A DNA stretch of 64,000 nt from Candidatus Kaiserbacteria bacterium (GCA_028286585.1 JAQBRI010000009.1:28010-92009), one strand, 5' to 3'; positions 34,455 to 56,818 are shown, counted from the stretch's first letter. The notes: generated from the sequence alone by a model not told the origin. Numbers and translations: made by a program.

Positions 34455-34476
34455 ATTATTATATTAATTGAATAAA

Positions 34477-34689: not shown

Positions 34690-34741
34690 AGCATAAAAGT
34701 ATATGATTAATTAATAATATGAACGGATTGAAGTATTAAAT

Positions 34742-36067: not shown

Positions 36068-36071
36068 AACA

Positions 36072-36108
36072 CGCCGCCAACTCCGAGGAGCTGGCGGCGC
36101 ATTTTTAT
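36072..36108 (+). terminator. Rho-independent terminator
   Basis: CGCCGCCA-ACTCC-gag-GGAGC-TGGCGGCG long hairpin followed by ATTTTTAT. Confidence 0.7.
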
Positions 36109-36145
36109 GTAACATTGATTACTTAAAACAAATTCTTTTTGGAAC

Positions 36146-36562: not shown

Positions 36563-36618
36563 AATTTACAATTATATTATTTCCCTTATTAGTATGCCCT
36601 CAGTATATACCACAAATA

Positions 36619-38154
36619 TTAGCCCTCAGAATCAACATCTTTGATTGTTTGGTCGATATAGGTCTGTGCATGTATCAGACGTTCCTGCACCTTTTTTATA
36701 TATGCAGCATCCTCTGGAGCAAGCGTAGTCGCAGCATTACTCTTTTCGAGATCATTCTTTTGCTGTTCCAGTCCCTGTTTAATATTCAAGAGCTTTTCGT
36801 GCGTATCATTTTTAACTTTTTTTACTTCTTCGCTCATGTCTTTGCTGCGTAGTTTTTCGGAGCGACGTAAACGATTCCAGAGGACGAAGTTCATCAACAA
36901 GGAGAGAAGCGAGAGGAGTAATGCTGCCGGTAGTTCGAGTGATCCGTAATTAAATGTCCGAACTTGATCGAAGAAATTCGACTGTGCCGTATGCGCTATC
37001 GGCACCACAAAAGATAATTGATCGGAATCTGCGTAATTACCCGCATTATCAAACACTCGAAGGACTGCGGTATGCGTGCCGACCGACGATGTAACTGGAA
37101 TTCGGACAAAACCGCTTGCAAACTGTGCCTGAGATAATGTGTCAGTTGTCGTACCATCAATCAGCACCTGGTAGGTATTGATACCAGCATATGCATCCTC
37201 TGCGCTTGCCTGAATAAAGAGCGCACTACTTGTTGCATCATACGTAATGAGGGAATTAAGTACTGGAGCAGATGTGTCGATTTGGAGACGATATGACTTG
37301 ACACTACTCCAGCCGGCAGGCGTATGTGCACGAATATTAAAATACCAAACACCATCATTCACTGGATCAAATGTTTTTATTGAAATAGGCGAGTGATACA
37401 CCGCGGTTGGAATTTTACCGCTAGTTTGACTTAATTCTGCCTGCACTGAATCGATGTCACTTGAGACGGTCCATGATATTGCTGGAGACGCATTTGCATA
37501 CCAAACGCTTTCAGATGGATGCGTTGGTGATGAAATATCAATTGTTGTCGTCTCAGCTGCTGGCTTTACTGTACTTTTGACCGGTAGAACCGTTGGCTTA
37601 ACAACAGGAGAAGCAGGCGCCTTGGTTGCTGCTTCAGAAATACTAATGGTCGAGCTTTGTGATGAGCGAAGCACGTCGGTACCAAGACCATCGTTTGCGC
37701 GGACAGCACCGCCCACAACTGACACCGCAGCGCTACCGGCAGATTTTGCACGCAGCGTGACATTGAAAAGCCGTCCGTTTGTACCCTGATAACCCGGTGA
37801 TGGCACGCCGCCGTTAAACGTCACGCCGCCGTTACCGTCGGATGCTGGAGCGTCAATCCAAAGCGTGAACAAAGAAACATCTTTATTTATTGAAACAAGA
37901 TCGAACTTATCTCGTGGATATATAAGTGTGCCTTCTCCGCTATTTATTGCAACTCCTTCGCTATTAACGACAATACCCAAAGTCACAGTTGAACCAATAG
38001 TGATCGAACTTGCGCTAGGGACTATTGAGAGAATCGCAGCATACGACTGTGATGTACCGAGTACAGATAGTAGCAATACAAAAAATAAAATGCGTCCTGA
38101 AATATTAAAGCGTTGCATATTTTTTGCGGCGATATTGTAGCCAGATAAAAACAA
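36619..38154 (-). CDS. Membrane-anchored surface protein with N-terminal cohesin-like domain, Ig-like/FN3-like middle region, C-terminal TM and coiled-coil cytoplasmic tail
   Basis: Signal peptide. LSIVPSASSITIGSTVTLGIVVNSEGVAINSGEGTLIYPRDKFDLVSIN...GRLFNVTLRAKSAGSAAVSV follows the strand/Gly pattern of cohesin domains; this is visual recognition only. C-terminal LELPAALLLSLLSLLMNFVLW TM plus charged coiled coil. Confidence 0.45.
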   Translation of the reverse strand: MFLSGYNIAAKNMQRFNISGRILFFVLLLSVLGTSQSYAAILSIVPSASSITIGSTVTLGIVVNSEGVAINSGEGTLIYPRDKFDLVSINKDVSLFTLWIDAPASDGNGGVTFNGGVPSPGYQGTNGRLFNVTLRAKSAGSAAVSVVGGAVRANDGLGTDVLRSSQSSTISISEAATKAPASPVVKPTVLPVKSTVKPAAETTTIDISSPTHPSESVWYANASPAISWTVSSDIDSVQAELSQTSGKIPTAVYHSPISIKTFDPVNDGVWYFNIRAHTPAGWSSVKSYRLQIDTSAPVLNSLITYDATSSALFIQASAEDAYAGINTYQVLIDGTTTDTLSQAQFASGFVRIPVTSSVGTHTAVLRVFDNAGNYADSDQLSFVVPIAHTAQSNFFDQVRTFNYGSLELPAALLLSLLSLLMNFVLWNRLRRSEKLRSKDMSEEVKKVKNDTHEKLLNIKQGLEQQKNDLEKSNAATTLAPEDAAYIKKVQERLIHAQTYIDQTIKDVDSEG

Positions 38155-38974
38155 TCACCAACAAAATGAGTATAACACCTCCAATCAATACAAATTGCGT
38201 AGAAGATTGGGGAGAATATATTATTTTTACAACACTGTTTCCCGCGACATCAGTGGCGCGTACTCGTAACTCCGACATTCGTGTCTGATCAAGGAGCACG
38301 TAGTAACGGTCTGCGCGCACATACTCGTTTGAACCTTCTTGCACTTCATAGTACGCAATACCGCTACCACTATCTTGTGCAAAAAACGTCAGGAAATACT
38401 GATTGTTAAATAATGAAGGATCACGTCCTACTTCCACCGTAACAAACTCAGGTGGTGTCGTATCACTGAGTACGGACGATGTTGCGGTCGTGCTACTTTC
38501 AATACTAATACTTTGTGTAAATGGTTGTACTGCTACAGGTGTTCCTGAGCCATTGTCACTATATGCAACAACTTTGTTTGCAGAAAGTGTAATGTTTCCA
38601 GACGCCGCAACATGAGCAGTAAACGAAAAAAGAATTTTATCTTGATGAGCGGCAATACCTGTCTGCACACCTCCCAAAAAGTCGATAGTATGCGTATTAA
38701 CAACAAAATGCGGTGTGTCCGGCCACAGTGTCATAACAGACCCTCCGGTAGTTACAGAGTCAACTGATACATTCTGCGGAATCGAAAGAGAGCCTTCTAT
38801 TGCATTGATTGCATCATTATCGGTCGCAATATGAACCTCCGCTGTAAATTTCTGTCCGATGGCAGGAACTGATGGATTGAGCATTACCGTGAGATGCGCA
38901 GCATACGCGCTTGTTGGCAGCCGAAAGCTTAAGAATAAAAGAGCGAGAAATAGAGAGGTTAGATATTTTTTCAT
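38105..38974 (-). CDS. Membrane-anchored surface protein with cohesin-like domain (C-terminal TM anchor)
   Basis: Signal peptide. LTVMLNPSVPAIGQKFTAEVHIATDNDAINAIEGSLSIPQNVSVDSV...ILFSFTAHVAASGNITLSANKVVA is cohesin-like. C-terminal FVLIGGVILILLVIVFIWLQYRRKKY stop-transfer anchor. Confidence 0.45.
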   Translation of the reverse strand: MKKYLTSLFLALLFLSFRLPTSAYAAHLTVMLNPSVPAIGQKFTAEVHIATDNDAINAIEGSLSIPQNVSVDSVTTGGSVMTLWPDTPHFVVNTHTIDFLGGVQTGIAAHQDKILFSFTAHVAASGNITLSANKVVAYSDNGSGTPVAVQPFTQSISIESSTTATSSVLSDTTPPEFVTVEVGRDPSLFNNQYFLTFFAQDSGSGIAYYEVQEGSNEYVRADRYYVLLDQTRMSELRVRATDVAGNSVVKIIYSPQSSTQFVLIGGVILILLVIVFIWLQYRRKKYATL

Positions 38975-38992
38975 AGTGATAGTAAGTCGGAA

Positions 38993-41900
38993 TTATTTCT
39001 TCCAATGATACAGCAATATTGAGAAGTCGACTGAATCTACCTTTCCGTCGTGATTGAGGTCGACTTTATTATTTTTAAAAGGTGGCTTCGTCTTCCAATA
39101 TGCGAGAAGTATTGAGAAATCGATTCCATTCACTTTTCCATCTCCGTTGATATCGCCAATCACTTCAGTTGTAGCTGCTGGGGTAGCCACAGGTGGAGAA
39201 TTATCTCCTCCGCCTCCCCCACCTCCTCCACCTCCGCCACCGCCACCTCCATTACCTGGGTTTTGTACGGGAGCAGCAATTGCAGTAAATGACTGACTTG
39301 CACTTGATGATGCTGATCCATATTGTACTGCTACATGGAACCAATACGTTCCAATAACGGGAACAGTTGAAGAAAGTGTTGTATCAAAGTTCGCACCAGG
39401 CTGAATCAGTTTTGCTGCAGTTGAACTAAAAATATCATCACCACCTCCACAAGAATTGGTTGCAGAGTCGGTAACACACCACGTGTATTGATATTCGTAT
39501 GCTATAGAACCTTCGTTTGTTATACGCACTGCTGTGGCAATGCTTGGTACCGTCAATCCACTAAAACTCTGGATCAGAACTTGTGCTGGCGCTCCCGGTG
39601 TTGCACTCACAGGAATTGTTGTCGTGCCTCGTCCAACAAGATTTTTTGCTGATATACGGAAATCATATGAATTATTGTTGGATAGACTAGTTACCATGGT
39701 TGTTGGTGTCGTACTAATACCGTCAGAAAATATAGACCATGTTCCGCCCGAAGAAAGTTTGTATTCAACTACGTAATCAGTCACAGGTGAACCACCGTTT
39801 GATATTGGCGCCGACCATGAAAGGTTGATACTGCTGTCTTGTACAATTGCGGCGAGGTTTATTGGGGCACCGGGCACACTTGCTGGCGTCGCAGCATTAC
39901 TTGTACCGGAGCTGGTACTCGTGCCAACTGCGTTTGTTGCAGTGACAGTAAATGTGTATGTTGTTCCGTTTGTGAGGCCTTGTATAGTAGCTGAAGTTCC
40001 ATTTGTTGTAGTACTAAATACTCCACCATTTGAAGTGACGGTATAGCTTGTTATAGGAGATCCTCCATTAAAACCGGGCGCAGACCACGTAAGATTTACA
40101 CTACTGTCTGCAATTGCTGCAGCAAGATTTGTTGGCGCGTCAGGAACTGTAGCTGGGGTGACCGAATTCGTTGCGGCTGATGAAATACTTGTTCCAATTG
40201 CGTTGGTTGCCGTCACTGTAAACGTGTAGGCTGTTCCGTTTGTTAAACCAGTTACCGTTATTGGTGAACTTCCGCCAGTTGCGGTGAAGTTGCCGATATT
40301 TGAAGTAACGGTATAAGACGTAATTGCAGAGCCACCGGTAAATGATGGTGGGCTAAATGTAATAGTCGCAGTACCGTCACCGCCAACTGCCGCTACGCTC
40401 GTTGGTGCACTTGGCCCACCTGCAGGTACAACCGAATTACTTGTTCCAGAACTAGTACTTGTTCCAACATTGTTTGTTGCAGTTACTGTAAAGGTGTACG
40501 TTGTTCCATTCACGAGTCCAGTAATAGTGATCGGTGAACTTCCACCTGTTGCAGTAAATCCTCCTGTATTTGATGACACGGTGTAGTTAGTTATTGCAGC
40601 ACCGCCGTTACTAACGGGCGGTGTAAAGGAAACAGTTGCTTGGCCGTTTCCAGCAACTGCAGAAATCGAAGTGGGTGCATCAGGTACTGTGGCAGGAGTA
40701 ACGGAGTTACTTGTACCCGATGAAGTACTCGTTCCAATACTATTTGTTGCAGTGACAGTAAATGTGTATGTCGTGCCATTTGTGAGACCAGTAATTGTAA
40801 TTGGTGAAGAGCCACCTGTTGCCGTAAATCCTCCTGTATTTGATGACACGGTATAGTTTGTTATTGCAGCGCCGCCGTTACTTACAGGCGGAGTAAATGT
40901 AATTGTTGCTTGGCCGTTACCACCAACGGCAGAAATACCAGTCGGAGAATTAGGAACAGTTCCTGGTATTACTGAATTACTTGCGGATGATGCGGTACTT
41001 GTTCCTGCAGCATTCGTAGCAGTGACTGTAAATGTGTACGTAGTTCCGTTGGTAAGACCGGTCACAGTGATCGGAGAAGAACCACCTGTTGCGGTAAGGC
41101 CGCCACTACTTGATGTGACAGTGTAACTCGTAACGGCAGCTCCTCCATTATTTACTGGTGGAGTAAATGTAATTGTTGCCTGACCATTACCGCTAACTGC
41201 GGTCACGCTTGTCGGCGCGTTTGGCGTCGTCGCGGGAACAACGGTGTTACTTGTGCCCGATGGCGTACTGGTTCCAACTGCATTTGTGGCAGTCACAGTA
41301 AATGTGTAGGTTGTTCCATTTGTAAGACCGGTAATTGTAATTGGTGAAGATCCGCCGCTCGCGGTGAAGCCGCCGGTGTTTGATGACACGGTGTAGTTAG
41401 TTATTGCAGAACCGTTGTTACTTCCCGGTGTAAAGGAAACCGTAGCTTGACCATTACCGCTTACTGCCGTGACAGCAGTAGGTGCATTAGGAACAGTAAC
41501 AGGAGTAACTGAGTTACTTGCGGACGACGCAGTACTGGTTCCAACATTGTTTGATGCTGTTACGGTAAATGTGTAGGTTGTACCGTTAGTAAGGCCAGTA
41601 ATTGTAATTGGGGAGCCGCCGCCTGTTGCAGTAAAGCCGCCGGTGTTTGATGACACGGTGTAGTTAGTTATTGCAGATCCCCCGTTACTGACTGGCGGAG
41701 TAAATGTGATTGTTGCTTGGCCGTTTCCAGCAACTGCAGAAACGCTTGTTGGGGCACCCGGTGCAGTCGCAGGTGTCACAGAATTGCTTAGTGTCGAGGA
41801 GGTACTTGTGCCAACGCCATTAGTTGCAGTAACGGTAAATGTGTATGCGGTGCCATTGGTAAGACCGGTCACAGTGATTGGTGAGCCACTTCCGCTTGCT

Positions 41901-44900
41901 GTAAACCCGCCTGAGTTTGATGTCACCGTGTACGTTGTGATTGCAGCACCACCGTTACTAACAGGCGGAGTAAATGTAATTGTTGCTTGGCCGTTACCTG
42001 CTGTAGCGACTGCTCCCGTAGGTGCATTTGGAACAGTTGCTGGTGTCACAGAATTGCTTAGTGTCGAGGAGGTACTTGTGCCAACGCCATTAGTTGCAGT
42101 AACGGTAAATGTGTATGCGGTGCCATTGGTAAGACCGGTCACAGTAAGTGGAGAACTGATACCAGTGACATTAAAGCCGCCAATGTTTGATGTGACCGTG
42201 TAGTTTGTAATCGCAGAACCGTTGTTACTTCCTGGTGTAAAGGTAATTGTTGCCTGACCATTTCCACCAACTGCAGTAACGCTTGTTGGAGCACTCGGGA
42301 CACCTGCCGGCGTGATTGAATTGCTTATTCCCGAAGATGTACTTGTTCCTGCAGAATTATTTGCAGTTACAGTAAACGCATAGACTACTCCGTTTGAGAG
42401 ACCGGTCACTGTGATTGGTGAAGAACCACCTGTTGCAGTAAAGCCTCCAACATTTGAAGTAACAGTGTACGTTGTGATTGCAGCACCGCCATTACTTACG
42501 GGTGGAGTAAACGAAATTGTTGCCTGCGTATCCCCTCGCACTGCTGTCACACTTGTCGGAGCATCTGGAATTGTTGCTGGAGTGACCGATGCGCTCGCAC
42601 TCGAACTAGCACTCGTTCCAACTGAGTTAGTAGCAGTTACTGTAAATGTATATGCCGTTCCGTTTGTTAAACCAGTTACCGTGATTGGTGAAGATCCGCC
42701 GGTTGCAGTAAAGCCACCTGTGTTTGAAGACACTGTATATGTTGTGATTGCAGCGCCACCGTTACTTACAGGCGGAGTAAAGGTTACGGTCACTTCTCCA
42801 TTGCCTCTCGTGACGGTTCCTATTGTCGGCGCGTTCGGAGTAGTAGCAGGAACAACCGTGTTACTCGTTGCCGATGCGGTACTTGTTCCTGCTGAGTTAG
42901 TTCCCGTTACGGTAAAGGTGTACGTTGTTCCATTTGTGAGACCAGTAATTGTAATTGGCGAAGATCCGCCGGTTGCAGTAAAGCCACCTGTGTTTGATGA
43001 GACCGTGTACGTTGTGATTGCAGATCCCCCATTACTTACAGGTGGTGTAAAGGAAACAGTTGCTTGACCATTTCCAGCGACTGCAGAAACGCTAGTTGGG
43101 GCACCCGGTGCAGTCGCCGGAGTTATTGTATTACTGGTGCCAGAATTTGTACTCGTACCGATTGCGTTTGTTTCGGTGACAGTAAATGTGTATGCCGTTC
43201 CGTTTGTTAAACCTGTTACAGTTATTGGTGAAGAGCCACCAGTTGCAGTGAAGCCGCCGGTGTTTGATGAGACTGTATAGATCGAAATACTTGAACCATT
43301 GTTATTGCCAGGTGTAAACGAAATTGTTGCTTGGCCATTTCCGGCAACTGCGGTTACGCTTGTTGGAGCACTCGGGACTCCCGCAGGTGTGATAGCATTA
43401 CTCGTACCAGAGGCGGTACTTGTTCCCGCCGAGTTAGTAGCAGTTACTGTAAAAGTATAAATCGTACCGTTGGTAAGACCGGTTATTGTAATCGGTGAAG
43501 ATCCACCAGTTGCTGTGAGGCCTCCCACATTTGATGAGACTGTGTATGTTGTTACAGCAGAGCCGCCGTTATTCACTGGCGGAGTAAACGATATGGTAGC
43601 CTGCGTGTCGCCGCGAACTGCGCTAACACTTGTCGGCGCGTCCGGTACTGTAGCTGGTGTCACCGAACTACTAGCACTCGAACTTGCGCTCGTTCCAACC
43701 GCATTTGTTGCGGTTACTGTAAACGTGTACGCTGTGCCATTCGTTAGACCTATTAGTGTTATTGGTGAAGAGCCGCCAGATGTTGTAAAGCCGCCTGTGT
43801 TTGATGAGACGGTGTAAAGAGTAATTGGTGAACCGCCTGTATTTCCTGGTGTAAAAGAAATGGTTACCTGCCCATTACCCGCCGTCCCTATTACACTAGT
43901 AGGTGCATCAGGAATTGTCGCCGGTGTCGCAGAATTTGTTGCGTTCGAGGCCGTACTCGTACCAACTGAGTTAGTAGCAGTTACTGTAAATGTGTATGCC
44001 GTTCCGTTTGTTAAACCTGTTACAGTTATTGGTGAACTACCACCTGTTGCAGTGAATCCTCCTGTGTTTGATGTAACGGTGTAGCCAGTTATTGCAGAAC
44101 CTCCGTTACTTACGGGTGGTGTAAATGTAATTGTTGCCTGAGTGTTACCACGTGTCGCGGTTCCTATAGTTGGTGCGTCTGGCACAGTTGCAGGAACCAC
44201 ACTATTACTTGTACTTGATGGAGTACTCGTTCCCAACGCACTACTTGCCGTCACTGTAAACGTGTACGTTGTTCCGTTCACAAGTCCAGTTATTGTAATT
44301 GGTGAAGAGCCACCTGTTGCAGTGAATCCCCCAGTGTTTGATGAGACCGTGTACGTTGTGATTGCAGATCCCCCATTACTTACTGGTGGTGTAAACGTAA
44401 TTGTTGCTTGGCCATTACCGCCGGTTGCAGTGACACTAGTTGGGGCACCCGGTGCAGTCGCCGGTATCACACTGTTACTAGCAATTGACGCAGTGCTTGT
44501 ACCAACGGCGTTCGTTGCCGTAACTGTAAACGAATAGGAAATTCCATTGGTAAGGCCGGTCACAACAATTGGTGAGCCACTTCCCGTTCCAGTAAAGCCG
44601 CCAACGTTTGAAGTAACCGTGTACGTTGTGATAGCAGAGCCGCCGTTATTCACTGGCGGAGTAAACGATACAGTAGCTTGAGTATCACCGCGAACTGCAC
44701 TCACGCCGGTTGGCGCACCTGGCACTGTTGCAGGAACAACACTATTACTCGTTCCCGAAGGAGAGCTTGTACCAGCGGAATTAGTAGCAGTTACCGTGAA
44801 TGTGTACGTTGTGCCATTAACAAGTCCGGTAATCGTAATCGGAGAACTTCCGCCGGTTGCGGTAAAACCGCCGGTGTTTGAAGACACTGTATATGTTGTG

Positions 44901-47900
44901 ATTGCAGTGCCACCATTACTGACTGGAGGAGTAAATGTGATTGTTGCTTGGCCGTTACCACGTGTTGCCGTTCCTATAGTTGGTGCACCAGGCGCTGTAG
45001 CTGGTGTTACTGCATTACTAGTACCCGAAGAAATACTGGTACCTGACGCGTTCGTTGCCGTTACTGTAAATGTGTACGTTGTTCCATTTGTGAGACCAGT
45101 AATTGTGATTGGTGAGCTGCCGCCGGTTGCGGTAAAACCGCCGGTGTTTGATGAGACAGTATAATTTGTAATTGGTGAGCCTCCCGAATTTACTGGAGGT
45201 GCAAAAGTAATAGTTGCTTGTCCATTTCCGGGAACTGCCGTAACACTCGTCGGCGCATTTGGTACCGTTTGATAATTTAAATATGCATAAGTAGTTCCCG
45301 GCGTAATCGCCCAAACTGGCGAAACAAAATCCCAGTTTGTATATGTCGCCTGGGTCTTCAATGCAGTAGTAGTTGTACCTGTCATTCCTGCCGGATCGGC
45401 ACCATTACCAACACCATTACTTTTGCCAGATGTAACGTTGTCCCAATAATCAGATACGTAAGATCCACCGATTGGATTTCCAACAATGCCTCCCACATAT
45501 TGAAGTGCCGCAGCACCAGTTGCTCCTGAGGCGCCCGCGGCGCCTCCTGTTCCTCCTGTTCCTGCAGCGCCTCCTGTTCCACCTGTTGCACCACTCGTTT
45601 TGGTGCCTGTCGGCACACCTGTTGCGTATGTATTTGTAATCACCGCATTATTACTTCCAAACAATCCTCCAGCATACGCGTTTCCGCCAGCACCTCCGGC
45701 GCCGCCTGTTGCACCCGTACCATTTACACCAGCCACTCCGCCTCCTGCTGCTCCGGCGTTTCCGCCAGCACCTCCTATCGCACCGGTTCCCGGAGTTCCG
45801 GCCGTAATAGTGACGTTTCCACGTGCGTAAGTATTTGTTATAACTCCCGTGTTCTGACCAACAAGTCCTCCGCCTGTCACATCACCTCCAACACCTCCTG
45901 TGCCGCCAGTTCCTCCAGTGGCTCCTGCACCACCGTTTCCAGATCCACCCGATCCACCAACGCCTCCGTTTCCGCCCTTTCCGCCGACCGCACCATTGCC
46001 TCCGTTGCCTCCTGTTATGCTTACGTTTCCGGATGAATAACTCGTATTAAAAGTTCCGGTCGCAAGATCTGCTCCCATAAGCCCGCCCGCAAATGATGCG
46101 CCGCCGGCACCACCATTTCCTCCTGCTACAGAAGCACCACCTGCGCCACCGGCAAGTGTTCCGCCTGCGCCACCTGTACTAACGGTACCCGAGAGTCCTG
46201 CGGAGGCACCAGCGCCACCAACAAGTGAGACATTTCCTGATGACCACGAAGAGAGCACAGTACTTCCCGAAGCGTTTTGTCCGACAAGTCCGCCAGCATA
46301 TGCTGCGCCTCCGGCGCCTCCCGCCGCAGTTGCACCCATTGCTCCGCCTATACCACCTGCGCCGGTTGGACCACCCGCGCCGCCGTTTCCTCCGACACCA
46401 CCTGCACCACCTACGCCGCCAGCAGAGCCGTTTACGTTCACGGCTCCAGTTCCATATGAAGTAGAAATCGTTCCGCCATTATTTTGTCCAACAAAACCAC
46501 CGCCATACGCGATACCTCCAACACCTCCTGCAGTACGTGCGCCAGCAATGCCGCCAGTTCCGCCAGTTCCCGCAACAATTCCTGCGCCGCCCGCCGCACC
46601 ATTTCCTCCCAATCCGCCAACGCCTCCTGCGCCGCCGGTTACCGTAACAGAACTGTTTGCATATGAATCTTTAATCGTTCGCCCAGTATTGTTATATCCA
46701 TTAAATCCACCCGCGTATGCAATACCTCCAACACCAGCCGCGCCCGCTGAACCGCCCGCGCCGCCTGTCGCACCATTTGCAGCCGTTGCGATTCCGCCGG
46801 CAACTCCAGCGCCGCCAGTTCCTCCAACACCTCCTGCACCAGCCGAACCCAAAACTGTTGTTGACGCGTAGGACCCCGAAAGCACGGTTCCATCATTAAA
46901 GCCAATGAGTCCGCCCGTATAAAGAACTCCTCCAGAAACTGCTGCGCCGCCTGCACCACCTGCACCACCAACTCCGGCTGCTCCAGGTAATCCTCCTATG
47001 CCTCCTGTACCACCGGACCCGCCGACTCCACTCGTGCCAGTAACAGATGCGCCAATTGCATAACTTGTTGCAATAGTATTAAGCGCATTCACGTTGTTAC
47101 CAATGAGTCCGCCCGAGTAGGACGCGCCACCAATTCCTCCAGCACCTCCTGTTCCGCCAGTGCCTCCAACATGTGCACTTGTTCCGAGACTTCCATCGCC
47201 GCCCGCGCCGCCTGTCGCACCAGTTGCACCGTTTTTAGCAATCGAAACAACACTACCTAATGCAAACGAATTTAAAACAACTCCGATTGCGGTATTGTGT
47301 GCAATGAGTCCTCCAACATATGCTGCACCTCCTGCTCCTCCTGCTCCTCCTGCTCCACCCGAGGCGGCAGTACTACCCGATACACTTCCAGAAGCACCTC
47401 CCGCAGCTCCCGCTCCCGGTGTTCCTGCAGTGCCACTCGTTGAAGTAGCATTTCCTGTCGCGTATGAATTTCCTTGAATCGTACCAAAGTTAAAAGCGAC
47501 AAGTCCGCCGGCATATGCTGCACCGCCCACGCCGGTAGCGCCACCCAAGCCGCCGGTTCCTCCGATTGATCCAGATCCACCGGCGCCACCAATCACTCCC
47601 GCCGCGCCATTACCGCTGGTGCCGCCATTTGCAATAACATTGTCAGTTGAATAACTTGAAGTAATGATGAGGTTGTTACTCGCGGTAGCACTGGTGCGCC
47701 CTACCAACCCACCGGCATATGCAGCACCGCCAGCTCCCGACGTACCTCCACCGCCCGTTGCAGCACCAACTGCCGCGGATCCGCTGGTGCCAGAGGCTCC
47801 TGCGCTTCCTCCATTTCCTCCTGTGCCACTTGTCGAGGTTACAATATTGCCTGTTGCATATGAAGTAAGAACGTTATTGGCCCCGGTTGTCGCACCAGTA

Positions 47901-53900: not shown

Positions 53901-56818
53901 CCCGAATATGCTGCGCCTCCTGCGCCGCCTGCTGCTCCTCCTCCGCCTGTTCCTCCTATGTGTGCAGTTCCAAGAGATGCGTCACCTCCAGTTCCACCAA
54001 CTTGTCCAACTTTTCCCGTTGACCCAGTTGCAGTAACGGCGCCTGTCGCAAAGACCGCTGTTGTCGTACCAGTAATAATACCGCCAAGGTTATTTTGTCC
54101 AACGAGTCCGCCCGCATATGCTATAGCACCTGCTCCACCTACTCCGCCTGCACCACCAGTTGCTGCAGTGAGCGTAGTTGCAACAGCAGAAGCGCCGGCA
54201 GTTGCGCCAGCCGAACCATTGCCCGGTGTTCCTCCGGTTGATTGCACGACGCCTGTTGCGTTACTGCCCGTTTGAATTATTCCCAAGTTGTTTCCGACAA
54301 GTCCTCCGACATACGAAACACCGCCGGCTCCACCTGTGCCGCCGGCGCCTCCTGCTCCACCAATTGCAGCACCGCCTCCAGCACCACCTACGCCCGCAGT
54401 GCCGGCTGCTCCGCCCAATCCGCCGGTTCCGGTTACTGTTCCTGTTGCGGTAACAGAAGTCAGGATTCCTGCATTCACCCATCCGGCAAGGCCACCAACA
54501 TAATCAATACCTCCCGCTGCTGCAAGACCAACAGCTCCGCCTGCGCCTCCAATACCTGTTCCAGCATTAGCACCTCCGGCACCACTATTTCCAGAAGCAC
54601 CTCCTGCGCCTCCCGTTCCTATAACATTTACACCACTCGTTGCAGCTGTAATATTTCCTTGTTGAGAATAACCAACGACTCCACCAACGTAGACTGTTCC
54701 TCCCAATGCTGCCGCATTCGAAACACTTGCTCCGCCCGCGCCTGCCGTAGTCGCGCCGCTCGTTGTGTTTCCGCCTGCTGCCGCATTACCTGCTGCGCCT
54801 CCTGCACCTCCTACACCTGTTACATTTCCAGAAACACTTACGTTTGAAATCGTACCAATGTTGTATCCGACCAGTCCTCCCACATACATAGTTGCTGCAG
54901 CAGTTCCTGCCGTACCGGTTCCTCCAGCAGTTGGTGTCGTACCTGCAGTTCCAGCAGTTCCAGCGGTACCGGCAACACCCGCCGTACTTGTTGCACTAAT
55001 CAACTCGCCCGAGAGAATAACGTTTTTGATAGTGTTGTTAGAAAAACCAAAAAGACCAACATAGTTGAGCGTTGTCGTACTTATAAAAAGATTACTGATG
55101 GTAAAGTTTGCACCATCAAAGATTCCACTAAAGTTGGTTGTGTTATCGCCTATCGGCACAAAGCCTGCACCCAAGTTCCATCCCGATGTTACCGTCGCAT
55201 TAATATTATTATTAAGTTTGTATGAGTTGGTAAGTCCGGTTCGAATACCCTGCAAACCATATACGTCGTACGTAATAAAAGGATCGGTACTCACGCCAAT
55301 GCCGGTATATCGTCTAAAGGTTCCCGCTGTTACCGAAAAGTTTCCCGTCGCAGCAAATGTATTGGTGCCGGGATTGTTTGCAACAAAAGTTGCGGCTGAT
55401 GATTGCACATAATTTCCCGACAAACCTCCAGCGTTCGAAATCGTAAGACTCGCATTTTGTGTAATGGTACCAGTGTAGCCGGCGATCGTGAGCGATCCAA
55501 TAGTAAAAGCAGTATCAATGTTTGATGCGTTTGATCCTGTATCAAATATCACATCGGTGTTTACATCAGGAGTAGAAGCACCGGACGCGCCGTTAGATGT
55601 TGCCGACCAGCTTCCGGTCGAGCTCCACAAAGCGCCCGAAGCACCAACCCAGTATCGTGTCGTCGGGTCGACGACATAATCAATATCAACATTTCCAATA
55701 ATCTTAAGATCAAACTCGTCGGTCGGAGTTTGAAGATTGGTCAAAAGAATACGGTACTTTCCATCATGATCAATTGCATCAAACGTGCCGACAAGTACAC
55801 CATCAAGTGTGTACACTTCTACGCGCACCGATGCACCATCGTGTGACCGAGCATACAACGTAATGTCTTTTGTATTGTCGAGCAGCTGTGCAAACGTAAC
55901 GCGCACAAACTGTCCGTCAGAAATATTTGCATACTGCTGGTCTTGCGATTGCAAGAGTGGATACACATCGCCAATTGTATTTTTGTTTGCATCAAGTTGC
56001 AGTGCCTTCGAAATATAAATAATGGTAAATGTCTGAGTCGACAAGTGCGGCACGATCCACGCAACATGATCTATGTATCCGTTACCATCGTCATCAAACG
56101 ATTGAAACTCCATAACTTGATTTGCATTGTTCTGCCAATTTATTTTTATCTGATCTTCTTGACCAACCTTAAATATTTCTGGAATAGCAGTTCGCACCGG
56201 TACGTTCAAGATTGGTGTTATTTCATTTTCAAGATCCGCGACAGATACGACAACTGTCTTGCCATTGTCGTTTGTGTGTTCGGTGATCGTAGGCACCTGC
56301 ACCAGAATCGGTAACGCAAGATCCGAAGTCGATGCAGTATTTTGTGAATTTAAAAAAGTATCAGTCGACGTTGCTGTCAAAATTGCAGCACCACCTGAAC
56401 TAGTAAAAATATTTTGCACAGAACTCGATGCGCTGGTGTTATCAGAAATTATTTCTGTCGAAGATGCTTGAGTAAATGAAGTATCAGTTGAAGTTGCAAT
56501 ACTACTGCTCGCATTAATTACTTCACTTTGTAAACTATCGGTAGAAGTCGTTGCGGGGGGCTGTATTTTAGCATCACCCGAATCCTGTGAAACTTGGCTT
56601 CCCTGCCCAACCTGGTCGTCGGAGCTGGTAGCGACTGGCGCAGGAGTAGTCGCATCCTCTGTTGAAGTTACGATTACAGTATTTGTATCAGTGACAATTG
56701 GCGTTGCATCATCAGCATGCGTCGATACAACGTTTCCAAATAATATTCCAAGTACAAAAAAAACCCCTACAACAATTTGTAGCGGTAATCGGAATATTCT
56801 AAAAAATGGCTCAATCAC
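38993..56818 (-). CDS. Giant (5941 aa) cell-surface protein: signal-anchor, Ser/Thr-rich stalk, beta-rich N-domain, about 3200 aa of Gly-rich GLUG-like repeats, 21 fibronectin type III domains, unknown C-domain, poly-Gly linker, C-terminal type-I dockerin
   Basis: Single uninterrupted ORF with GTG start. Repeated YVGGLVG.N.G.I..SYATGNV..GG.GG.GGAGG units. FN3 units PNAPTSVTAV.GNGQATITFTPPVSNGG.AIT.YTVSSNTGGFTATGGSSPITITGLTNGTTYTFTVTATN repeated 19 times almost verbatim plus 2 divergent. C-terminus DINGDGKVNGIDFSILLAYWK...DLNHDGKVDSVDFSILLYHWKK is two calcium-binding dockerin repeats (DxNxDGxVNxxD). Preceded by 16 consecutive Gly. Confidence 0.85.
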   Translation of the reverse strand: MIEPFFRIFRLPLQIVVGVFFVLGILFGNVVSTHADDATPIVTDTNTVIVTSTEDATTPAPVATSSDDQVGQGSQVSQDSGDAKIQPPATTSTDSLQSEVINASSSIATSTDTSFTQASSTEIISDNTSASSSVQNIFTSSGGAAILTATSTDTFLNSQNTASTSDLALPILVQVPTITEHTNDNGKTVVVSVADLENEITPILNVPVRTAIPEIFKVGQEDQIKINWQNNANQVMEFQSFDDDGNGYIDHVAWIVPHLSTQTFTIIYISKALQLDANKNTIGDVYPLLQSQDQQYANISDGQFVRVTFAQLLDNTKDITLYARSHDGASVRVEVYTLDGVLVGTFDAIDHDGKYRILLTNLQTPTDEFDLKIIGNVDIDYVVDPTTRYWVGASGALWSSTGSWSATSNGASGASTPDVNTDVIFDTGSNASNIDTAFTIGSLTIAGYTGTITQNASLTISNAGGLSGNYVQSSAATFVANNPGTNTFAATGNFSVTAGTFRRYTGIGVSTDPFITYDVYGLQGIRTGLTNSYKLNNNINATVTSGWNLGAGFVPIGDNTTNFSGIFDGANFTISNLFISTTTLNYVGLFGFSNNTIKNVILSGELISATSTAGVAGTAGTAGTAGTTPTAGGTGTAGTAAATMYVGGLVGYNIGTISNVSVSGNVTGVGGAGGAAGNAAAGGNTTSGATTAGAGGASVSNAAALGGTVYVGGVVGYSQQGNITAATSGVNVIGTGGAGGASGNSGAGGANAGTGIGGAGGAVGLAAAGGIDYVGGLAGWVNAGILTSVTATGTVTGTGGLGGAAGTAGVGGAGGGAAIGGAGGAGGTGGAGGVSYVGGLVGNNLGIIQTGSNATGVVQSTGGTPGNGSAGATAGASAVATTLTAATGGAGGVGGAGAIAYAGGLVGQNNLGGIITGTTTAVFATGAVTATGSTGKVGQVGGTGGDASLGTAHIGGTGGGGAAGGAGGAAYSGGLVGLNSGIIISSFSNTGLVTVVGGTGGVGGTGGAGGTKGSSGTSGAGGASGTGGSANVLSTYAGGLVGSNTGIIQTSSAQNIVNGTGGAGGAGANGVTGLTGLAGLAGGIGGAGAILYVGGLAGNNALTITDSNYTIGSVTGVAGAGGAAGAGGAGGTGALAGAAGTATAGGIVYAGGFVGNNTGSTLTNDFSTGNVSGTAGAGGAAAAGGAGGTSLAGITGGTGAVGGIAYVGGLVGFLTTGEILTSYATGTVNSLGGTGGIGGAGGAGGTGAASTTGGAGALGGTGGAGGAAFGGGLVGIISLGTVTTSYAVGSTTVTGGTGGIGGVGGAGGTGGTNAIGGVGATGGNGGAGGISTAGGLVGQNGGIIRTTSYSTGNVTSVGGTPGNAGAGGAGGATTATFNSGTAAAGGLGGNGGAGAIAYAGGLVGNNLNEIINSYASGSIVATGSTGKNGGAAGVAGNGSAGGSSHVGAVGATGGTAGAGGDSFAGGLVGLNTSTIINAYIESGSVISQGGASGIGANGGAGGTGGSGALGGVGGVGGTSVSLGGFAYAGGLVANNSTSGVILGSHATINATSTAGVTGSGGNGGVGGTGAAGGAGAAVALGKAAYAGGLAGNSSGVINGSYATGNASATGGAGGAGGSGGNGGAGTTGGAGGNTSASAAASNAAGLAYAGGLVGFNTTNGIIQNGSHASGNALATGGVGAAGATTGNGGNSSGAFAGGSAGTTGGVAGLSGEAGGLAAAGGLVGFNAAVVSPDSYAAGNAVALGGAAGNGGLAGTPGTSGAGVAGAAGITSGAGGVGGASYAGGVIGNDSVLGTTISLPNTTGTISSTGGAGGTGVTGGVGGAGGSTAGAIGGAGGAGGAGGTGGLAAGGGIMGFNTGIIRDVTYTITSISVVGGAAGGAGAGGAAGASGNIAGGTGATGGTGGIGGVGGAEYIGGLVGDNSGVLINDIVIGSLTASGRSGGTGGAGGNGGDGTLGTGGHAGGVAGTGGTGGGGGVVYIGGLAGQGNGNIASSSSSGGTITVTLGGSGGVGGTGGTGGAGGSGSGRNGTGGTGGAGGVAGPIYSGGAIGLNSLADVIIESLSSSDDVTITEGSGGAGGAAVAGTNGAVGGTGGAGGGGGALNFGAYAGGLEGFNSGTGQSINNSRASGNITVTGGAGGAGAVGGAGGSGVTNSITGGAGAVGGIGGAGGFANGGGLLGFTNTNVFIGNSFTSGNVTVLAGVGGAAGNGGAGGAGGTASAGGAGATGGAAGLGGASYAGGLVAAAAASGGNIATSSSTGIIRGTSGAGGASGSGGAGGAGGSASLGGAGGNGAVGGGGGVNYTGGLVGDSPTTIQSSFHTTGAVSAFSGAGGAAGAGGTAGASGNISAGTAAAGGAGASGGVAGAVNVGGLVGRNNTVAGIINNSYATSDVNATGGSGGAGGVGGAGGDGTLATNHLGGTGGVGGAGGAGGGLVAGALQAGGLVGQNFVGTITNSYSQTGTVTVTGSAGGASAQGGAGGVGTGTALYGIAGAGGAGGAGGGVYVGGLVGYSIGVIQTSYSKTALNVTGGAGQNGTAGRSGAAGGGAAGSAGGAGGASSLIHVGGLVGNNASEIIASYASVDAGSGKGNISVAGGAMGNGANGGAGGSGLAAGSAGGAGGVGGVGGAGGGTFVGGLAGFNSAAGIITTSYSDTIAISGTEQTAGTGGIGGAGGTGVGAFAGGTGTAGGAGGAGSARSYGGLVGDNLGTIQNNSYSSISFSVTGGTGGTGGVGGAGGTSGSTIASGIAAAGGAGGAGGAGGVTYGGGLVGRINATTQTLQILNSYATGNATVTGGTGGTGGAGGVGGDGSTGTVTHAGSAGALGGSAGIGGDGNAGGLVGYTNVTSGIVNYSFDYATGNASSTGGNAGTAGTSGNGGASRTTVAGGAGGGAVLAAAGGSGFAGGLIGLNFVTTGGQSDIVNSYATGAVSATGGIGSTGNTGGVGANGAASSVGGAGGAGGIGGAGGDGNAGGLAGFTGATTGANNVLTSYATGNIVTSTSGTGGNGGSAGASGTSGSAAVGAATGGGGTSGAGGAAYAGGLVGRTSATASNNLIITSSYSTDNVIANGGTSGNGAAGVIGGAGGSGSIGGTGGLGGATGVGGAAYAGGLVAFNFGTIQGNSYATGNATSTSGTAGTPGAGAAGGASGSVSGSTAASGGAGGAGGAGGAAYVGGLIAHNTAIGVVLNSFALGSVVSIAKNGATGATGGAGGDGSLGTSAHVGGTGGTGGAGGIGGASYSGGLIGNNVNALNTIATSYAIGASVTGTSGVGGSGGTGGIGGLPGAAGVGGAGGAGGAAVSGGVLYTGGLIGFNDGTVLSGSYASTTVLGSAGAGGVGGTGGAGVAGGIATAANGATGGAGGSAGAAGVGGIAYAGGFNGYNNTGRTIKDSYANSSVTVTGGAGGVGGLGGNGAAGGAGIVAGTGGTGGIAGARTAGGVGGIAYGGGFVGQNNGGTISTSYGTGAVNVNGSAGGVGGAGGVGGNGGAGGPTGAGGIGGAMGATAAGGAGGAAYAGGLVGQNASGSTVLSSWSSGNVSLVGGAGASAGLSGTVSTGGAGGTLAGGAGGASVAGGNGGAGGASFAGGLMGADLATGTFNTSYSSGNVSITGGNGGNGAVGGKGGNGGVGGSGGSGNGGAGATGGTGGTGGVGGDVTGGGLVGQNTGVITNTYARGNVTITAGTPGTGAIGGAGGNAGAAGGGVAGVNGTGATGGAGGAGGNAYAGGLFGSNNAVITNTYATGVPTGTKTSGATGGTGGAAGTGGTGGAAGASGATGAAALQYVGGIVGNPIGGSYVSDYWDNVTSGKSNGVGNGADPAGMTGTTTTALKTQATYTNWDFVSPVWAITPGTTYAYLNYQTVPNAPTSVTAVPGNGQATITFAPPVNSGGSPITNYTVSSNTGGFTATGGSSPITITGLTNGTTYTFTVTATNASGTSISSGTSNAVTPATAPGAPTIGTATRGNGQATITFTPPVSNGGTAITTYTVSSNTGGFTATGGSSPITITGLVNGTTYTFTVTATNSAGTSSPSGTSNSVVPATVPGAPTGVSAVRGDTQATVSFTPPVNNGGSAITTYTVTSNVGGFTGTGSGSPIVVTGLTNGISYSFTVTATNAVGTSTASIASNSVIPATAPGAPTSVTATGGNGQATITFTPPVSNGGSAITTYTVSSNTGGFTATGGSSPITITGLVNGTTYTFTVTASSALGTSTPSSTSNSVVPATVPDAPTIGTATRGNTQATITFTPPVSNGGSAITGYTVTSNTGGFTATGGSSPITVTGLTNGTAYTFTVTATNSVGTSTASNATNSATPATIPDAPTSVIGTAGNGQVTISFTPGNTGGSPITLYTVSSNTGGFTTSGGSSPITLIGLTNGTAYTFTVTATNAVGTSASSSASSSVTPATVPDAPTSVSAVRGDTQATISFTPPVNNGGSAVTTYTVSSNVGGLTATGGSSPITITGLTNGTIYTFTVTATNSAGTSTASGTSNAITPAGVPSAPTSVTAVAGNGQATISFTPGNNNGSSISIYTVSSNTGGFTATGGSSPITVTGLTNGTAYTFTVTETNAIGTSTNSGTSNTITPATAPGAPTSVSAVAGNGQATVSFTPPVSNGGSAITTYTVSSNTGGFTATGGSSPITITGLTNGTTYTFTVTGTNSAGTSTASATSNTVVPATTPNAPTIGTVTRGNGEVTVTFTPPVSNGGAAITTYTVSSNTGGFTATGGSSPITVTGLTNGTAYTFTVTATNSVGTSASSSASASVTPATIPDAPTSVTAVRGDTQATISFTPPVSNGGAAITTYTVTSNVGGFTATGGSSPITVTGLSNGVVYAFTVTANNSAGTSTSSGISNSITPAGVPSAPTSVTAVGGNGQATITFTPGSNNGSAITNYTVTSNIGGFNVTGISSPLTVTGLTNGTAYTFTVTATNGVGTSTSSTLSNSVTPATVPNAPTGAVATAGNGQATITFTPPVSNGGAAITTYTVTSNSGGFTASGSGSPITVTGLTNGTAYTFTVTATNGVGTSTSSTLSNSVTPATAPGAPTSVSAVAGNGQATITFTPPVSNGGSAITNYTVSSNTGGFTATGGGSPITITGLTNGTTYTFTVTASNNVGTSTASSASNSVTPVTVPNAPTAVTAVSGNGQATVSFTPGSNNGSAITNYTVSSNTGGFTASGGSSPITITGLTNGTTYTFTVTATNAVGTSTPSGTSNTVVPATTPNAPTSVTAVSGNGQATITFTPPVNNGGAAVTSYTVTSSSGGLTATGGSSPITVTGLTNGTTYTFTVTATNAAGTSTASSASNSVIPGTVPNSPTGISAVGGNGQATITFTPPVSNGGAAITNYTVSSNTGGFTATGGSSPITITGLTNGTTYTFTVTATNSIGTSTSSGTSNSVTPATVPDAPTSISAVAGNGQATVSFTPPVSNGGAAITNYTVSSNTGGFTATGGSSPITITGLVNGTTYTFTVTATNNVGTSTSSGTSNSVVPAGGPSAPTSVAAVGGDGTATITFSPPSFTGGSAITSYTVTSNIGNFTATGGSSPITVTGLTNGTAYTFTVTATNAIGTSISSAATNSVTPATVPDAPTNLAAAIADSSVNLTWSAPGFNGGSPITSYTVTSNGGVFSTTTNGTSATIQGLTNGTTYTFTVTATNAVGTSTSSGTSNAATPASVPGAPINLAAIVQDSSINLSWSAPISNGGSPVTDYVVEYKLSSGGTWSIFSDGISTTPTTMVTSLSNNNSYDFRISAKNLVGRGTTTIPVSATPGAPAQVLIQSFSGLTVPSIATAVRITNEGSIAYEYQYTWCVTDSATNSCGGGDDIFSSTAAKLIQPGANFDTTLSSTVPVIGTYWFHVAVQYGSASSSASQSFTAIAAPVQNPGNGGGGGGGGGGGGGGGDNSPPVATPAATTEVIGDINGDGKVNGIDFSILLAYWKTKPPFKNNKVDLNHDGKVDSVDFSILLYHWKK
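39205..39252 (-). repeat. (GGN)16 simple repeat encoding a poly-Gly linker before the dockerin
   Basis: Plus strand cctccgcctcccccacctcctccacctccgccaccgccacctcc; protein GNGGGGGGGGGGGGGGGGDN. Confidence 0.8.
39700..45265 (-). repeat. Tandem array of about 20 near-identical repeats of about 270-285 bp, each encoding one FN3 domain
   Basis: DNA visibly repeats: the triplet sequence ...gtaactgtaaatgtgtacgttgttccatttgtgagaccagtaattgtaattggtgaagagccacc... recurs at about 275-bp spacing through the region. Confidence 0.85.
45400..55000 (-). repeat. Degenerate tandem repeats (about 180-210 bp units) encoding Gly-rich GLUG-like modules; extreme strand compositional skew (coding strand GGN-rich)
   Basis: Plus strand is dominated by CCNCC/GCNCC runs (antisense of GGN codons), generating many spurious Pro/Ala-rich plus-strand ORFs. 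Confidence 0.8.

Follow-up and report, generated by a model that had tools for sequence, protein, structure and literature searches.

An old, stably inherited FN3 array, the probable stalk of a giant surface protein from a bacterium labeled Candidatus Kaiserbacteria

Background

Is a long tandem array of FN3 domains in a giant bacterial surface protein the product of recent expansion, with a length that still varies between cells, or an old structure held together by selection? The array considered here lies in a window of 64,000 nucleotides (the whole stretch of DNA that was analyzed) from a Patescibacteria genome labeled Candidatus Kaiserbacteria. A sequence-only reading had described its units as near-identical at the protein and DNA levels, and had accordingly viewed it as recently expanded or evolving in concert, as a hotspot of copy-number change and as a likely site of assembly error. 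Here we examine the array, the protein that carries it, its counterparts in related genomes and the genes that adjoin it.

Results and discussion

Organization of the giant protein

The array is encoded within an ORF for a 5,941-residue protein (Table 1), whose GTG is the sole in-frame start candidate within the first 100 codons. The predicted protein comprises, in order, a signal peptide, an N-terminal β-module, GLUG repeats, the FN3 stalk, a β-sandwich, a poly-Gly stretch and a dockerin. Its N-terminus, as read from the sequence, resembles a Sec signal peptide (MIEPFFRIFRLPLQIVVGVFFVLGILFGNVVSTHA/DD). The N-terminal all-β module is conserved and common to many Patescibacteria surface proteins; residues 1-600 gave no match in Pfam or NCBIfam, including no recognized adhesive domain, and a fold search with an AF2 model of the module retrieved only weak, low-TM matches, whose possible jelly-roll or CBM6-like character we treat as a lead only. 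The GLUG region is dominated by Gly (35%) and Ala (17%) with 2.2% charged residues, has a GC content of 55-58% versus 44% for the background, and is built of repeats bearing a Y-x-G-G-L-V-G (GLUG) motif. A Pfam search with the entire Gly-rich region returned no match, and a 300-residue slice alone (residues 601-900) recovered the Glug family (PF07581; 27.3 bits versus a cut-off of 20.5); NCBIfam added nothing beyond Pfam for the giant protein. The β-rich domain of the C-terminal cassette contains two cysteines and is without a family assignment.

Table 1. Coordinates of the features described, numbered within the window
Feature	Position	Strand	Remarks
Giant surface protein ORF, 5,941 aa	38993..56818	-	GTG start; harbors the FN3 array
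Signal peptide, Ser/Thr-rich linker and N-terminal all-β module	55019..56818	-	
Gly/Ala-rich GLUG-repeat region, ~3,250 aa	45263..55018	-	~65-aa repeats
FN3 units 1-19	40145..45262	-	consensus type, 89-90 aa each
FN3 unit 20	39875..40144	-	divergent junction unit
FN3 unit 21	39590..39874	-	canonical Trp-containing FN3
C-terminal cassette	38993..39589	-	β-rich domain, Gly linker, dockerin
15-Gly linker	39205-39241	-	in C-terminal cassette
Type I dockerin	~39014-39157	-	C-terminal; PF00404
289-aa neighbor	38105..38974	-	immediately downstream of giant ORF; signal peptide, divergent cohesin-like domain, Ig-like domain, C-terminal TM helix
511-aa second syntenic neighbor	36619..38154	-	similar N-terminal motif, Big_13 Ig-like domain
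104-nt exact tract, unit 12	42042..42145	-	identical to 41772-41875
104-nt exact tract, partner copy, unit 13	41772..41875	-	
51-nt exact tract, U5/U8	43986..44036 / 43182-43232	-	
50-nt exact tract, U4/U9	44334-44383 / 42990-43039	-	
44-nt exact tract, U14/U15	41634-41677 / 41367-41410	-	
38-nt exact tracts, U3/U7, U9/U10 and U13/U17			38 nt each
35-nt exact tract, U1/U9			

Anatomy of the FN3 array

Unit segmentation resolves 21 head-to-tail FN3 domains between positions 39590 and 45262 on the minus strand, each of 89-90 residues apart from a final unit of ~95. TRF reports a period of 270 with 17.5 copies (score 1718, 69% matches), and a separate repeat search found 19 in-register copies at a spacing of 267/270, 60-78% identical to the reference copy. 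The Pfam fn3 profile (PF00041) matches 21 stretches (E 4.6e-179; 581.6 bits versus a cut-off of 25). An AF2 model of units 12-13 (pLDDT 93.7) is all-β with six predicted strands of at least three residues per domain, and its top Foldseek matches in the PDB are FnIII tandems (E 1.6e-12), consistent with the seven-stranded β-sandwich fold of the family. The earlier description of about 20 tandem repeats with one FN3 domain each is thus correct, with 21 units at a period of 267-270 nt; of the limits given for the array (39700-45265), the end holds and the start cuts into unit 21. Units 1-19 are rich in Thr (24%) and Ser (14%), have 1.0% charged residues, with none at all in nine of the 19, and retain 30 invariant positions out of 90.

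The last two units had been singled out as divergent and as a possible junction to the C-terminal domain, and comparison with relatives agrees on both counts. Units 20 and 21 show ~55% and ~33% protein identity, respectively, to units 1-19, and both are closer to their positional orthologs in other genomes (73-77%) than to internal units (33-59%). The ortholog of unit 20 is 73% identical; unit 21 invariably occurs together with the C-terminal cassette in relatives and is 77% identical to the last of 15 units in one of them (L002).

Divergence and age of the units

The codon alignment of units 1-19 gives a mean DNA identity of 69.1% (range 61-79%, maximum 78.9%) and a mean protein identity of 75.1% (range 64-89%); 31 of the 171 unit pairs reach 80% protein identity and none reaches 90%, which does not bear out the supposed near-identity. 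Adjacent units are 67-87% identical in protein, with two of 18 such pairs attaining 80%, and identity is flat across lags of 1-12 units along the array. The longest exact word common to two units has a median of 14 nt, while efficient RecA recombination usually needs ~20-30 bp and is strongly suppressed by ~30% divergence. Divergence at synonymous sites approaches saturation (pS 0.66 versus pN 0.17, dN/dS ~0.12), and the units are about as similar within the genome (69% in DNA) as between genomes (67%); arrays of this type have mean DNA identities of 66-76% across the family. Concerted evolution, understood as an excess of within-genome similarity together with lost positional orthology, is therefore not seen. 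A DNA identity below 85% had been set beforehand as counting against recent homogenization, which the observed 69% refutes. Because the units are only ~69% identical in DNA, the array is old and stably inherited rather than recently expanded.

Purifying selection has kept the units ~75% identical in protein while their DNA has drifted to ~69%. This conservation is real, since compositional constraint alone predicts, by arithmetic from unit composition, only ~13% identity. We also considered two further patterns. Active selection of synonymous differences (codon scrambling) as a brake on recombination was rejected in favor of plain saturation, as the same codon is used for identical amino acids more often than expected from random codon choice (44.6% versus 35.2%). 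A higher-order repeat of several units, suggested by the RGD-bearing units 3, 7 and 11, was likewise rejected, no lag being significant.

Traces of exchange and inheritance in relatives

Eight exact tracts of 35-104 nt are scattered through the array and look like gene-conversion patches; outside them unit identity drops to 62-74%, and nine unit pairs have runs of concordant sites at a global p<0.05 (exceeding at least 95% of permutation maxima). The longest tract, between units 12 and 13, which are otherwise 64% identical, contributes 71 consecutive concordant polymorphic sites, a run reached in 0 of 300 permutations. We regard it as a putative product of gene conversion, and nowhere else in the array is in-register recombination or an assembly loop a realistic worry. 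Among related arrays, one (L025) has undergone a whole-unit conversion that left its units 4 and 8 99.6% identical and did not alter copy number, and another (L015) has a unit pair at 100%. The few exact tracts here and occasional whole-unit conversion in relatives are the sole signs of exchange.

Such signs might be taken to mean that frequent short-tract gene conversion, rather than purifying selection, chiefly maintains the protein similarity of the units, and the significant runs in nine pairs, the above-random use of the same codons and the whole-unit event in L025 would all accord with this. However, conversion would homogenize synonymous sites too, and these have diverged almost to saturation, with low identity outside the tracts; moreover, units are as near to foreign units as to their paralogs, and orthologous units of sister species, which keep their positions, evolve with a dN/dS of 0.05-0.07. 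We consider frequent conversion a very improbable explanation, and prefer purifying selection as the force that keeps the units alike.

Related arrays, all taken from MAGs in which assembly errors are likewise possible, were compared between sister species within the family, the nearest level available; no same-species relative turned up in the genome and metagenome collections scanned, where nothing exceeded ~78% identity in the C-terminal cassette. One pair of sister arrays (L025 and L027) has 16 units and 4668 nt on either side, with a same-position identity of 88.8% versus 67.1% elsewhere (dS 0.97, dN/dS 0.07); a second (L028 and L031) shows 92.2% versus 69.7%, and a third (L010 and L049) has 27 units in both members. 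The units of sister genomes best match the same position in 14 of 16 and 11 of 14 cases. Thus, inheritance in this family preserves the arrays unit by unit, and their length is unchanged across sister species (dS ~1).

These results bear on the proposal of a recently expanded or actively homogenized array, in which RecA or slippage would vary fiber length between cells or strains, as in the Periscope Proteins (Whelan et al. 2021, PMC8201768). In its favor are the uniform length of the in-frame tandem units, a few exact tracts of up to 104 nt, copy numbers of 1-27 among distant relatives and occasional near-identical unit pairs in other genomes. Like the Periscope Proteins (Sgo_0707 SHIRT arrays, SasG, Rib/AlphaC), the FN3 array forms a long tandem stalk of similar folded domains on a bacterial surface, its adjacent domains are far more similar than the <50% identity usual in multidomain proteins (PMC8201768), and its repeat number differs among homologs. 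The Periscope screen sets its threshold for repeat identity at 80% or more and recognizes variation as a repeat number that differs among close strains (proteins at least 90% identical), and high DNA identity, which permits intragenic recombination, is invoked to explain the similar adjacent domains (PMC8201768). The 89-90-residue length of the FN3 repeats agrees with this screen, but their mean protein identity lies below its threshold, and the high DNA identity is absent by every measure above (mean, maximum, pS and common words). Whereas Periscope arrays combine highly identical DNA repeats with strain-level length variation, here synonymous sites are saturated, units show neither within-genome clustering nor an effect of adjacency, and sister arrays are equal in length. 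The copy-number hotspot is accordingly not supported, and we regard recent expansion or ongoing homogenization as extremely unlikely; the old, stably inherited array is the reading that we retain.

Reliability of the assembled array

The expectation that such repeats disturb short-read assembly proved right as regards fragmentation; collapse, by comparison, was not demonstrated. The k=31 Logan contig ends at the first repeated 31-mer (40569-40599), the array holds 25 repeated 31-mer blocks, and 14 related contigs terminate inside their own arrays. In addition, the 104-nt tract that units 12 and 13 share as neighbors makes a loop of 270 nt, and how many times it is traversed hinges on read length; this raises the question of whether the copy number or order of units in the window is an artifact. 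Against this, whole-unit collapse is unlikely because every unit differs from every other by at least 21% in DNA; further, the ORF is uninterrupted over 17.8 kb, and in sister genomes the assemblies of related arrays, 11-27 units long, are colinear. The Logan contig, an independent assembly that may share the reads of the window and hence is not necessarily independent data, matches it with 0 mismatches over 7194 nt and reproduces units 21 to 18 exactly. An artifact in copy number or order thus appears improbable.

The dockerin and its syntenic neighbors

No LPxTG or SLH anchor motif was seen in the giant protein. Its C-terminal dockerin (PF00404; 46.5 bits versus a cut-off of 22.9) displays the duplicated calcium-binding loop-helix, with two DxNxDGKV calcium loops in its sequence, DINGDGKVNGID and DLNHDGKVDSVD. 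A homolog of the 289-residue neighbor is encoded immediately downstream in 43 related loci, and one of the 511-residue neighbor is present in 63. Exact-protein look-ups with two neighboring gene products gave no match. Single-sequence searches with the 289-residue protein of the window gave no match to Pfam Cohesin; nevertheless, six of 16 members of its family match that profile (PF00963), three homologs carry precomputed PF00963 assignments, and the family profile matches the scaffoldin cohesins 5AOZ/5M2O (E 3.4e-4) over its first 57 positions only. We hence call this protein cohesin-like, an identity that rests on family members and not on its own sequence. We propose that the dockerin and the adjoining cohesin-like TM protein constitute the cell-surface anchor, for whose binding the synteny in 43 loci would be circumstantial evidence.

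Comparison with other tandem and giant proteins

FnIII neighbors in titin are typically 25-40% identical among themselves. The titin and other eukaryotic FnIII tandems (PDB 3LPW, 8BXR) are the best structural matches of the array and share its fold and head-to-tail arrangement. However, titin FnIII is ~25% identical to the modeled units 12-13 and its neighbors are much more divergent than the units here, which are 75% identical, almost charge-free and bacterial.

The giant protein also resembles the fibrillar adhesins and FA-like proteins (Monzon et al. 2021, PMC8286594): besides a signal peptide it has a distal module free of repeats, a stalk domain in many copies (here 21 FN3 domains) and a proposed anchoring end, and the stalk separates this end from the one that is putatively functional. 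In contrast to them, no recognized adhesive Pfam domain was found in it, and its proposed anchor is a dockerin-cohesin pair instead of LPxTG, SLH or a similar element; the main text of that study makes no mention of Patescibacteria, fn3, GLUG or dockerin. A further parallel is offered by non-cellulosomal cohesin-dockerin tethering and the dockerin-bearing giant proteins of Omnitrophota (bioRxiv 10.1101/2023.11.21.568195), which are likewise very large and extracellular, with dockerin modules and a proposed role in attachment. The Omnitrophota giants exceed 30,000 residues and have many dockerin and thrombospondin repeats with C-terminal TM regions, whereas the present protein carries one type I dockerin at its C-terminus besides GLUG repeats and an FN3 stalk, with the cohesin-like membrane protein encoded as a separate neighbor. 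Searches of the literature turned up no account of this CPR protein family, and the 5,941-residue protein is an ordinary kind of thing from an understudied lineage.

Proposed role of the stalk

Short Pro-rich linkers and the beads-on-a-string FN3 fold would make the array a semi-rigid spacer, which, with ~3.5-4 nm for an FN3 domain, could span ~70-80 nm if extended. Judging from architecture and synteny, the C-terminal dockerin would dock onto the membrane-anchored cohesin-like protein encoded directly downstream, and the FN3 array would then act as a cell-proximal stalk pushing the GLUG region and the N-terminal module off the cell. A role in setting fiber length is plausible: copy number would determine reach, and would change over deep species divergence (1-27 units), not between cells; nothing in the data suggests that it varies among cells or strains. 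Overall, we think it likely that the FN3 domains make up the stalk of this giant, secreted surface protein, in an old array of 19 consensus and two conserved junction domains that serves as a dockerin-tethered spacer between the GLUG region and the dockerin.

The strong conservation of the near-charge-free, Thr-rich surface suggests that the units may do more than serve as spacers. Compatibly with a stalk role, they could be functional modules, forming a glycosylated sheath or a multivalent binding surface, which would explain the near-consensus, almost uncharged and Thr-rich sequence in every unit and across species. The scarcity of charge, the invariant positions, the low dN/dS (0.05-0.12) and the high similarity of adjacent domains without matching DNA identity point this way, but the demands of folding or stability on a minimal FN3, if strong, could be explanation enough, and we hold functional modules to be possible though unlikely. 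Even more speculative, and somewhat less probable in our estimation, is a selection-maintained counterpart of the Periscope Proteins: ~75%-identical, near-charge-free (Thr/Ser/Gly-coated) FN3 arrays that outlast synonymous saturation, are conserved between species, present a surface with a sequence-specific job and belong to a fiber whose membrane tether is a dedicated, syntenic pair of cohesin and dockerin. If so, that job might be a glycosylated or hydrogen-bonding sheath, or multivalent contact with the envelope of a host cell, and the fiber would be an attachment organelle of CPR episymbionts without a description in the literature searched.

Conclusions

The FN3 array is not a hypervariable, contingency-like locus, which matters to anyone who would take it to mark phase variation, length variation or a collapsed assembly. 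It shows that purifying selection by itself can keep adjacent folded domains highly similar, with no need of the DNA identity that is usually invoked. The locus provides a well-delimited giant cell-surface fiber from an uncultivated, probably episymbiotic lineage, together with a testable hypothesis of how it may be tethered, through a dockerin and an adjacent cohesin-like membrane protein.

Array anatomy and the giant protein

Tandem Repeats Finder reports a single array (40430-45154, period 270, 17.5 copies, score 1718) with only 69% matches, and a repeat search recovers 19 copies in register, spaced at 267/270 nt and 60-78% identical to the reference copy. The array lies inside one ORF of 5,941 aa on the minus strand (38993-56818), whose translation, when cut at the conserved unit start P-x-[AS]-P-[TI], yields 21 units spanning 39590-45262 (89-90 aa each, the last ~95 aa; numbered U1-U21 from the N-terminal side). 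Pfam fn3 matches 21 stretches (E 4.6e-179), and an AlphaFold2 model of units 12-13 (pLDDT 93.7) has the FnIII tandems of titin and neogenin as its best PDB matches. Thus, the proposal from a sequence-only reading that tandem repeats here, ~20 in number and 270-285 bp long, each encode one FN3 domain is confirmed, with two corrections to its placement: the array is on the minus strand, and the start that had been assigned cuts unit 21.

Features of the giant protein and of the surrounding window
Feature	Position (strand)	Description
N-terminus		Sec-type signal peptide, predicted from sequence
Linker		Ser/Thr-rich, after the signal peptide
N-terminal module		conserved all-beta; common to many Patescibacteria surface proteins with differing C-terminal parts
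GLUG region	45263-55018 (-)	~3,250 aa; ~65-aa repeats with a Y-x-GGLVG (GLUG) motif; 35% G, 17% A, 2.2% charged
FN3 domains		21, after the GLUG region; then, at 38993-39589 (-), an unassigned beta-rich domain, a 15-Gly linker and a type I dockerin
FN3 units 1-19	40145-45262 (-)	consensus type
RGD in units 3, 7, 11	~44688-44690, 43611-43613, 42534-42536	aa 4043, 4402, 4761
Exact tract U12/U13	42042-42145 = 41772-41875	104 nt
Exact tract U5/U8		51 nt
Exact tract U4/U9		50 nt
Exact tract U14/U15		44 nt
Exact tracts U3/U7, U9/U10, U13/U17		38 nt each
Exact tract U1/U9		35 nt
15-glycine run	39205-39241 (-)	imperfect 9-nt DNA repeat (CTCCTCCAC), between C-terminal beta domain and dockerin
289-aa gene	38105-38974 (-)	first downstream of the dockerin-ending gene; signal peptide, cohesin-like domain, Ig-like domain (DUF7743), C-terminal TM helix then basic tail
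511-aa gene	36619-38154 (-)	second downstream of the dockerin-ending gene
tRNA-Phe(GAA)	32829-32904 (-)	with tRNA-Arg, the window's only Rfam/ARAGORN matches
tRNA-Arg(CCT)	33367-33441 (-)	
Helicase/peptidase gene	60629-62635 (-)	668 aa; Schlafen-group-3-like DNA/RNA helicase domain (PF09848, E 4e-67), C-terminal S24 (LexA-like) peptidase domain

A model of the N-terminal module gives weak, CBM-like fold matches; its database homologues are nearly all truncated proteins on short contigs. Units 1-19 contain 1.0% charged residues (none in 9 units), 24% Thr, 14% Ser and 14% Gly, a near charge-free composition that is unusual among FN3 domains, and Thr occupies their outward-facing strand positions (e.g. 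TYTFTVTAT). Elsewhere in the window, the Schlafen-like helicase/S24 fusion is unusual and might serve in defence or in a stress response.

Divergence of the units

The units had been described as near-identical, with only the two terminal ones divergent. The latter holds, units 20 and 21 showing ~55% and ~33% protein identity to the other units; the former does not. In a codon-aware alignment, units 1-19 share a mean of 69.1% identity in DNA (61.0-78.9%) and 75.1% in protein (64-89%), with protein identity of at least 80% in only 31 of 171 pairs and of at least 90% in none. This DNA mean falls below the 85% that the same reading had set as its limit for recent homogenisation, which by that standard is refuted. 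Synonymous sites differ in a proportion of 0.66 (Jukes-Cantor dS ~1.6), against a pN of 0.17 (dN/dS ~0.12), and where units agree in an amino acid they also agree in its codon in 44.6% of cases, against the 35.2% that random draws from the array's own codon usage predict. Therefore, synonymous sites are near saturation, while the protein is kept near the consensus. The GLUG region, with a GC content of 55-58% (background 44%) and a strong GC skew, contains no repeated 25-mer, and so is likewise an old, diverged repeat region.

Identity between units is flat along the array (67.7-69.7% at lags 1-12, none significant by permutation), which rules out an adjacency effect or a higher-order block. 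An RGD tripeptide (VRGDTQAT) recurs at the same position in three units, four units apart; given that the array has no higher-order periodicity, this spacing is probably coincidental.

Comparison with related arrays

With the non-repeat C-terminal cassette as query, 79 related loci were collected in species-representative genomes and another 80 in metagenomes, all of them Patescibacteria-type MAGs with cassette identity of 50-78%. Seven contigs with Patescibacteria-type cassettes (L030, L059, L074, L077, L078, L079 and L080) come from MAGs labelled as Flavobacteriaceae, Methanosarcinales, Gammaproteobacteria, Planctomycetota or Actinomycetes. L030 and L059 match the full cassette strongly, and for them misbinning or mislabelling is the probable cause; in the remaining five the match is confined to the query's FN3-unit part (43-60% over ~100 residues; 47% over 215 in L080), and these could be true FN3 proteins of the labelled phyla.

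Units of the window are 67% identical to those of other genomes and 69% to their own paralogues, and clear positional orthologues exist only for units 20 (73%) and 21 (77%). Mean DNA identity within arrays of this type is 66-76% across the family, so the window array is typical. Arrays of three sister-species pairs are compared in the table.

Arrays in three pairs of sister species
Loci	Units	Array length (nt)	Identity, same position	Identity, other position	Best match at same position	dS	dN/dS
L025 / L027	16 / 16	4668 / 4668	88.8%	67.1%	14/16	0.97	0.07
L028 / L031	14 / 14	4116 / 4113	92.2%	69.7%	11/14	0.97	0.05
L010 / L049	27 / 27	7269 / 7278	85.2%	74.3%	13/27	1.32	0.07

These comparisons are decisive: arrays of the family preserve both length and unit-by-unit identity over ~1 synonymous substitution per site, the opposite of a copy-number hotspot. 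The active length variation that had been suggested finds no support at this, the sister-species, level. Copy number does differ among distant relatives, fully captured arrays at deep divergence having 1, 3, 7, 11, 13, 14, 15, 16, 17 or 27 units. Slippage is more plausible at the imperfect DNA repeat encoding the 15-Gly linker than in the FN3 array; cassette matches in relatives span ~820-1240 nt against 879 nt here, and therefore some part of the cassette is length-variable.

Exchange between units and assembly

A GENECONV-style test, comparing concordant runs of polymorphic sites with 300 column permutations, found nine unit pairs with global p <0.05. Beyond their exact tracts, tract-sharing pairs return to 62-74% identity, and the tracts look like short gene-conversion patches. 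RecA-dependent recombination requires perfectly identical stretches of ~20-30 bp, and divergence as large as that in this array strongly reduces it; as the longest word shared between units has a median of 14 nt, only the few exact tracts are plausible substrates.

Isolated pairs of units with 96-100% identical DNA occur in three of the related loci, namely L025 (units 4/8), L015 (1/3, 100%) and L051 (2, 4, 7). The L025 pair (99.6%) is non-adjacent, the unit count equals that of its sister L027, and unit 4 finds its best match in unit 8 of L027; this indicates whole-unit conversion rather than expansion, or else an artefact of MAG assembly.

A Logan contig (k=31, SRR13312974) is identical to 33405-40598 across all 7194 nt, as an independent assembly, not necessarily of independent data, since its reads may be those behind the source MAG. 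It ends exactly in the array's first repeated 31-mer (40569-40599), and 14 related contigs end within their own arrays; these arrays therefore fragment short-read assemblies, and public short-read assemblies systematically fragment genes of this family. The expectation of assembly trouble is thus upheld as regards fragmentation. Collapse in the window is unlikely, because all units differ from one another by at least 21% in DNA, and the sole ambiguous spot is the tract shared by adjacent units 12 and 13.

Downstream genes and a proposed anchor

Homologues of the 289-aa and 511-aa genes are present in 43 and 63 related loci, respectively, and among the best-scoring matches listed they directly follow the dockerin gene. 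An NCBI entry identical to the downstream protein, from a Candidatus Kaiserbacteria MAG, is annotated as hypothetical (JWO50_731). Single-sequence searches gave no Cohesin match for the window's own 289-aa protein; in its family, precomputed PF00963 annotation is found on 3 homologues, Pfam Cohesin matches 6 of 16 members (best E 5.6e-6), and the family profile retrieves the Ruminococcus flavefaciens scaffoldin cohesins 5AOZ and 5M2O from the PDB (E 3.4e-4). This makes the 289-aa protein a candidate docking partner of the dockerin. We infer that the giant protein may be secreted and tethered through its dockerin to this putative membrane cohesin, in which case the FN3 array would form a cell-proximal stalk.

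Relation to known repeat proteins

The interpretation in the sequence-only reading amounts to a Periscope Protein, a class screened as repeats of >50 residues with identity of at least 80% and explained by high DNA identity leading to recombination, with strain-level length variation (PMC8201768). In the window array DNA identity is clearly too low for this and protein identity lies on average under the 80% threshold, and in the nearest comparison for this family, that of sister species, length is constant. The protein fits the looser plan of the fibrillar adhesins (PMC8286594), a stalk between a distal module and an anchor, although no recognised adhesive domain (Pfam and NCBIfam, aa 1-600) or standard anchor (LPxTG, SLH) was found in it. 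A literature search for a description of this Patescibacteria protein family found no paper; the Omnitrophota giant-gene preprint (bioRxiv 10.1101/2023.11.21.568195) concerns different dockerin-rich proteins.

Adjacent domains are usually <50% identical (PMC8201768), and adjacent FN3 units here, at 67-87% in protein, lie far above this. As such similarity is maintained without DNA identity, each unit is under selection at the level of its protein sequence. The array is old and selectively maintained, and would serve as the stalk of a giant CPR-bacterial surface protein.
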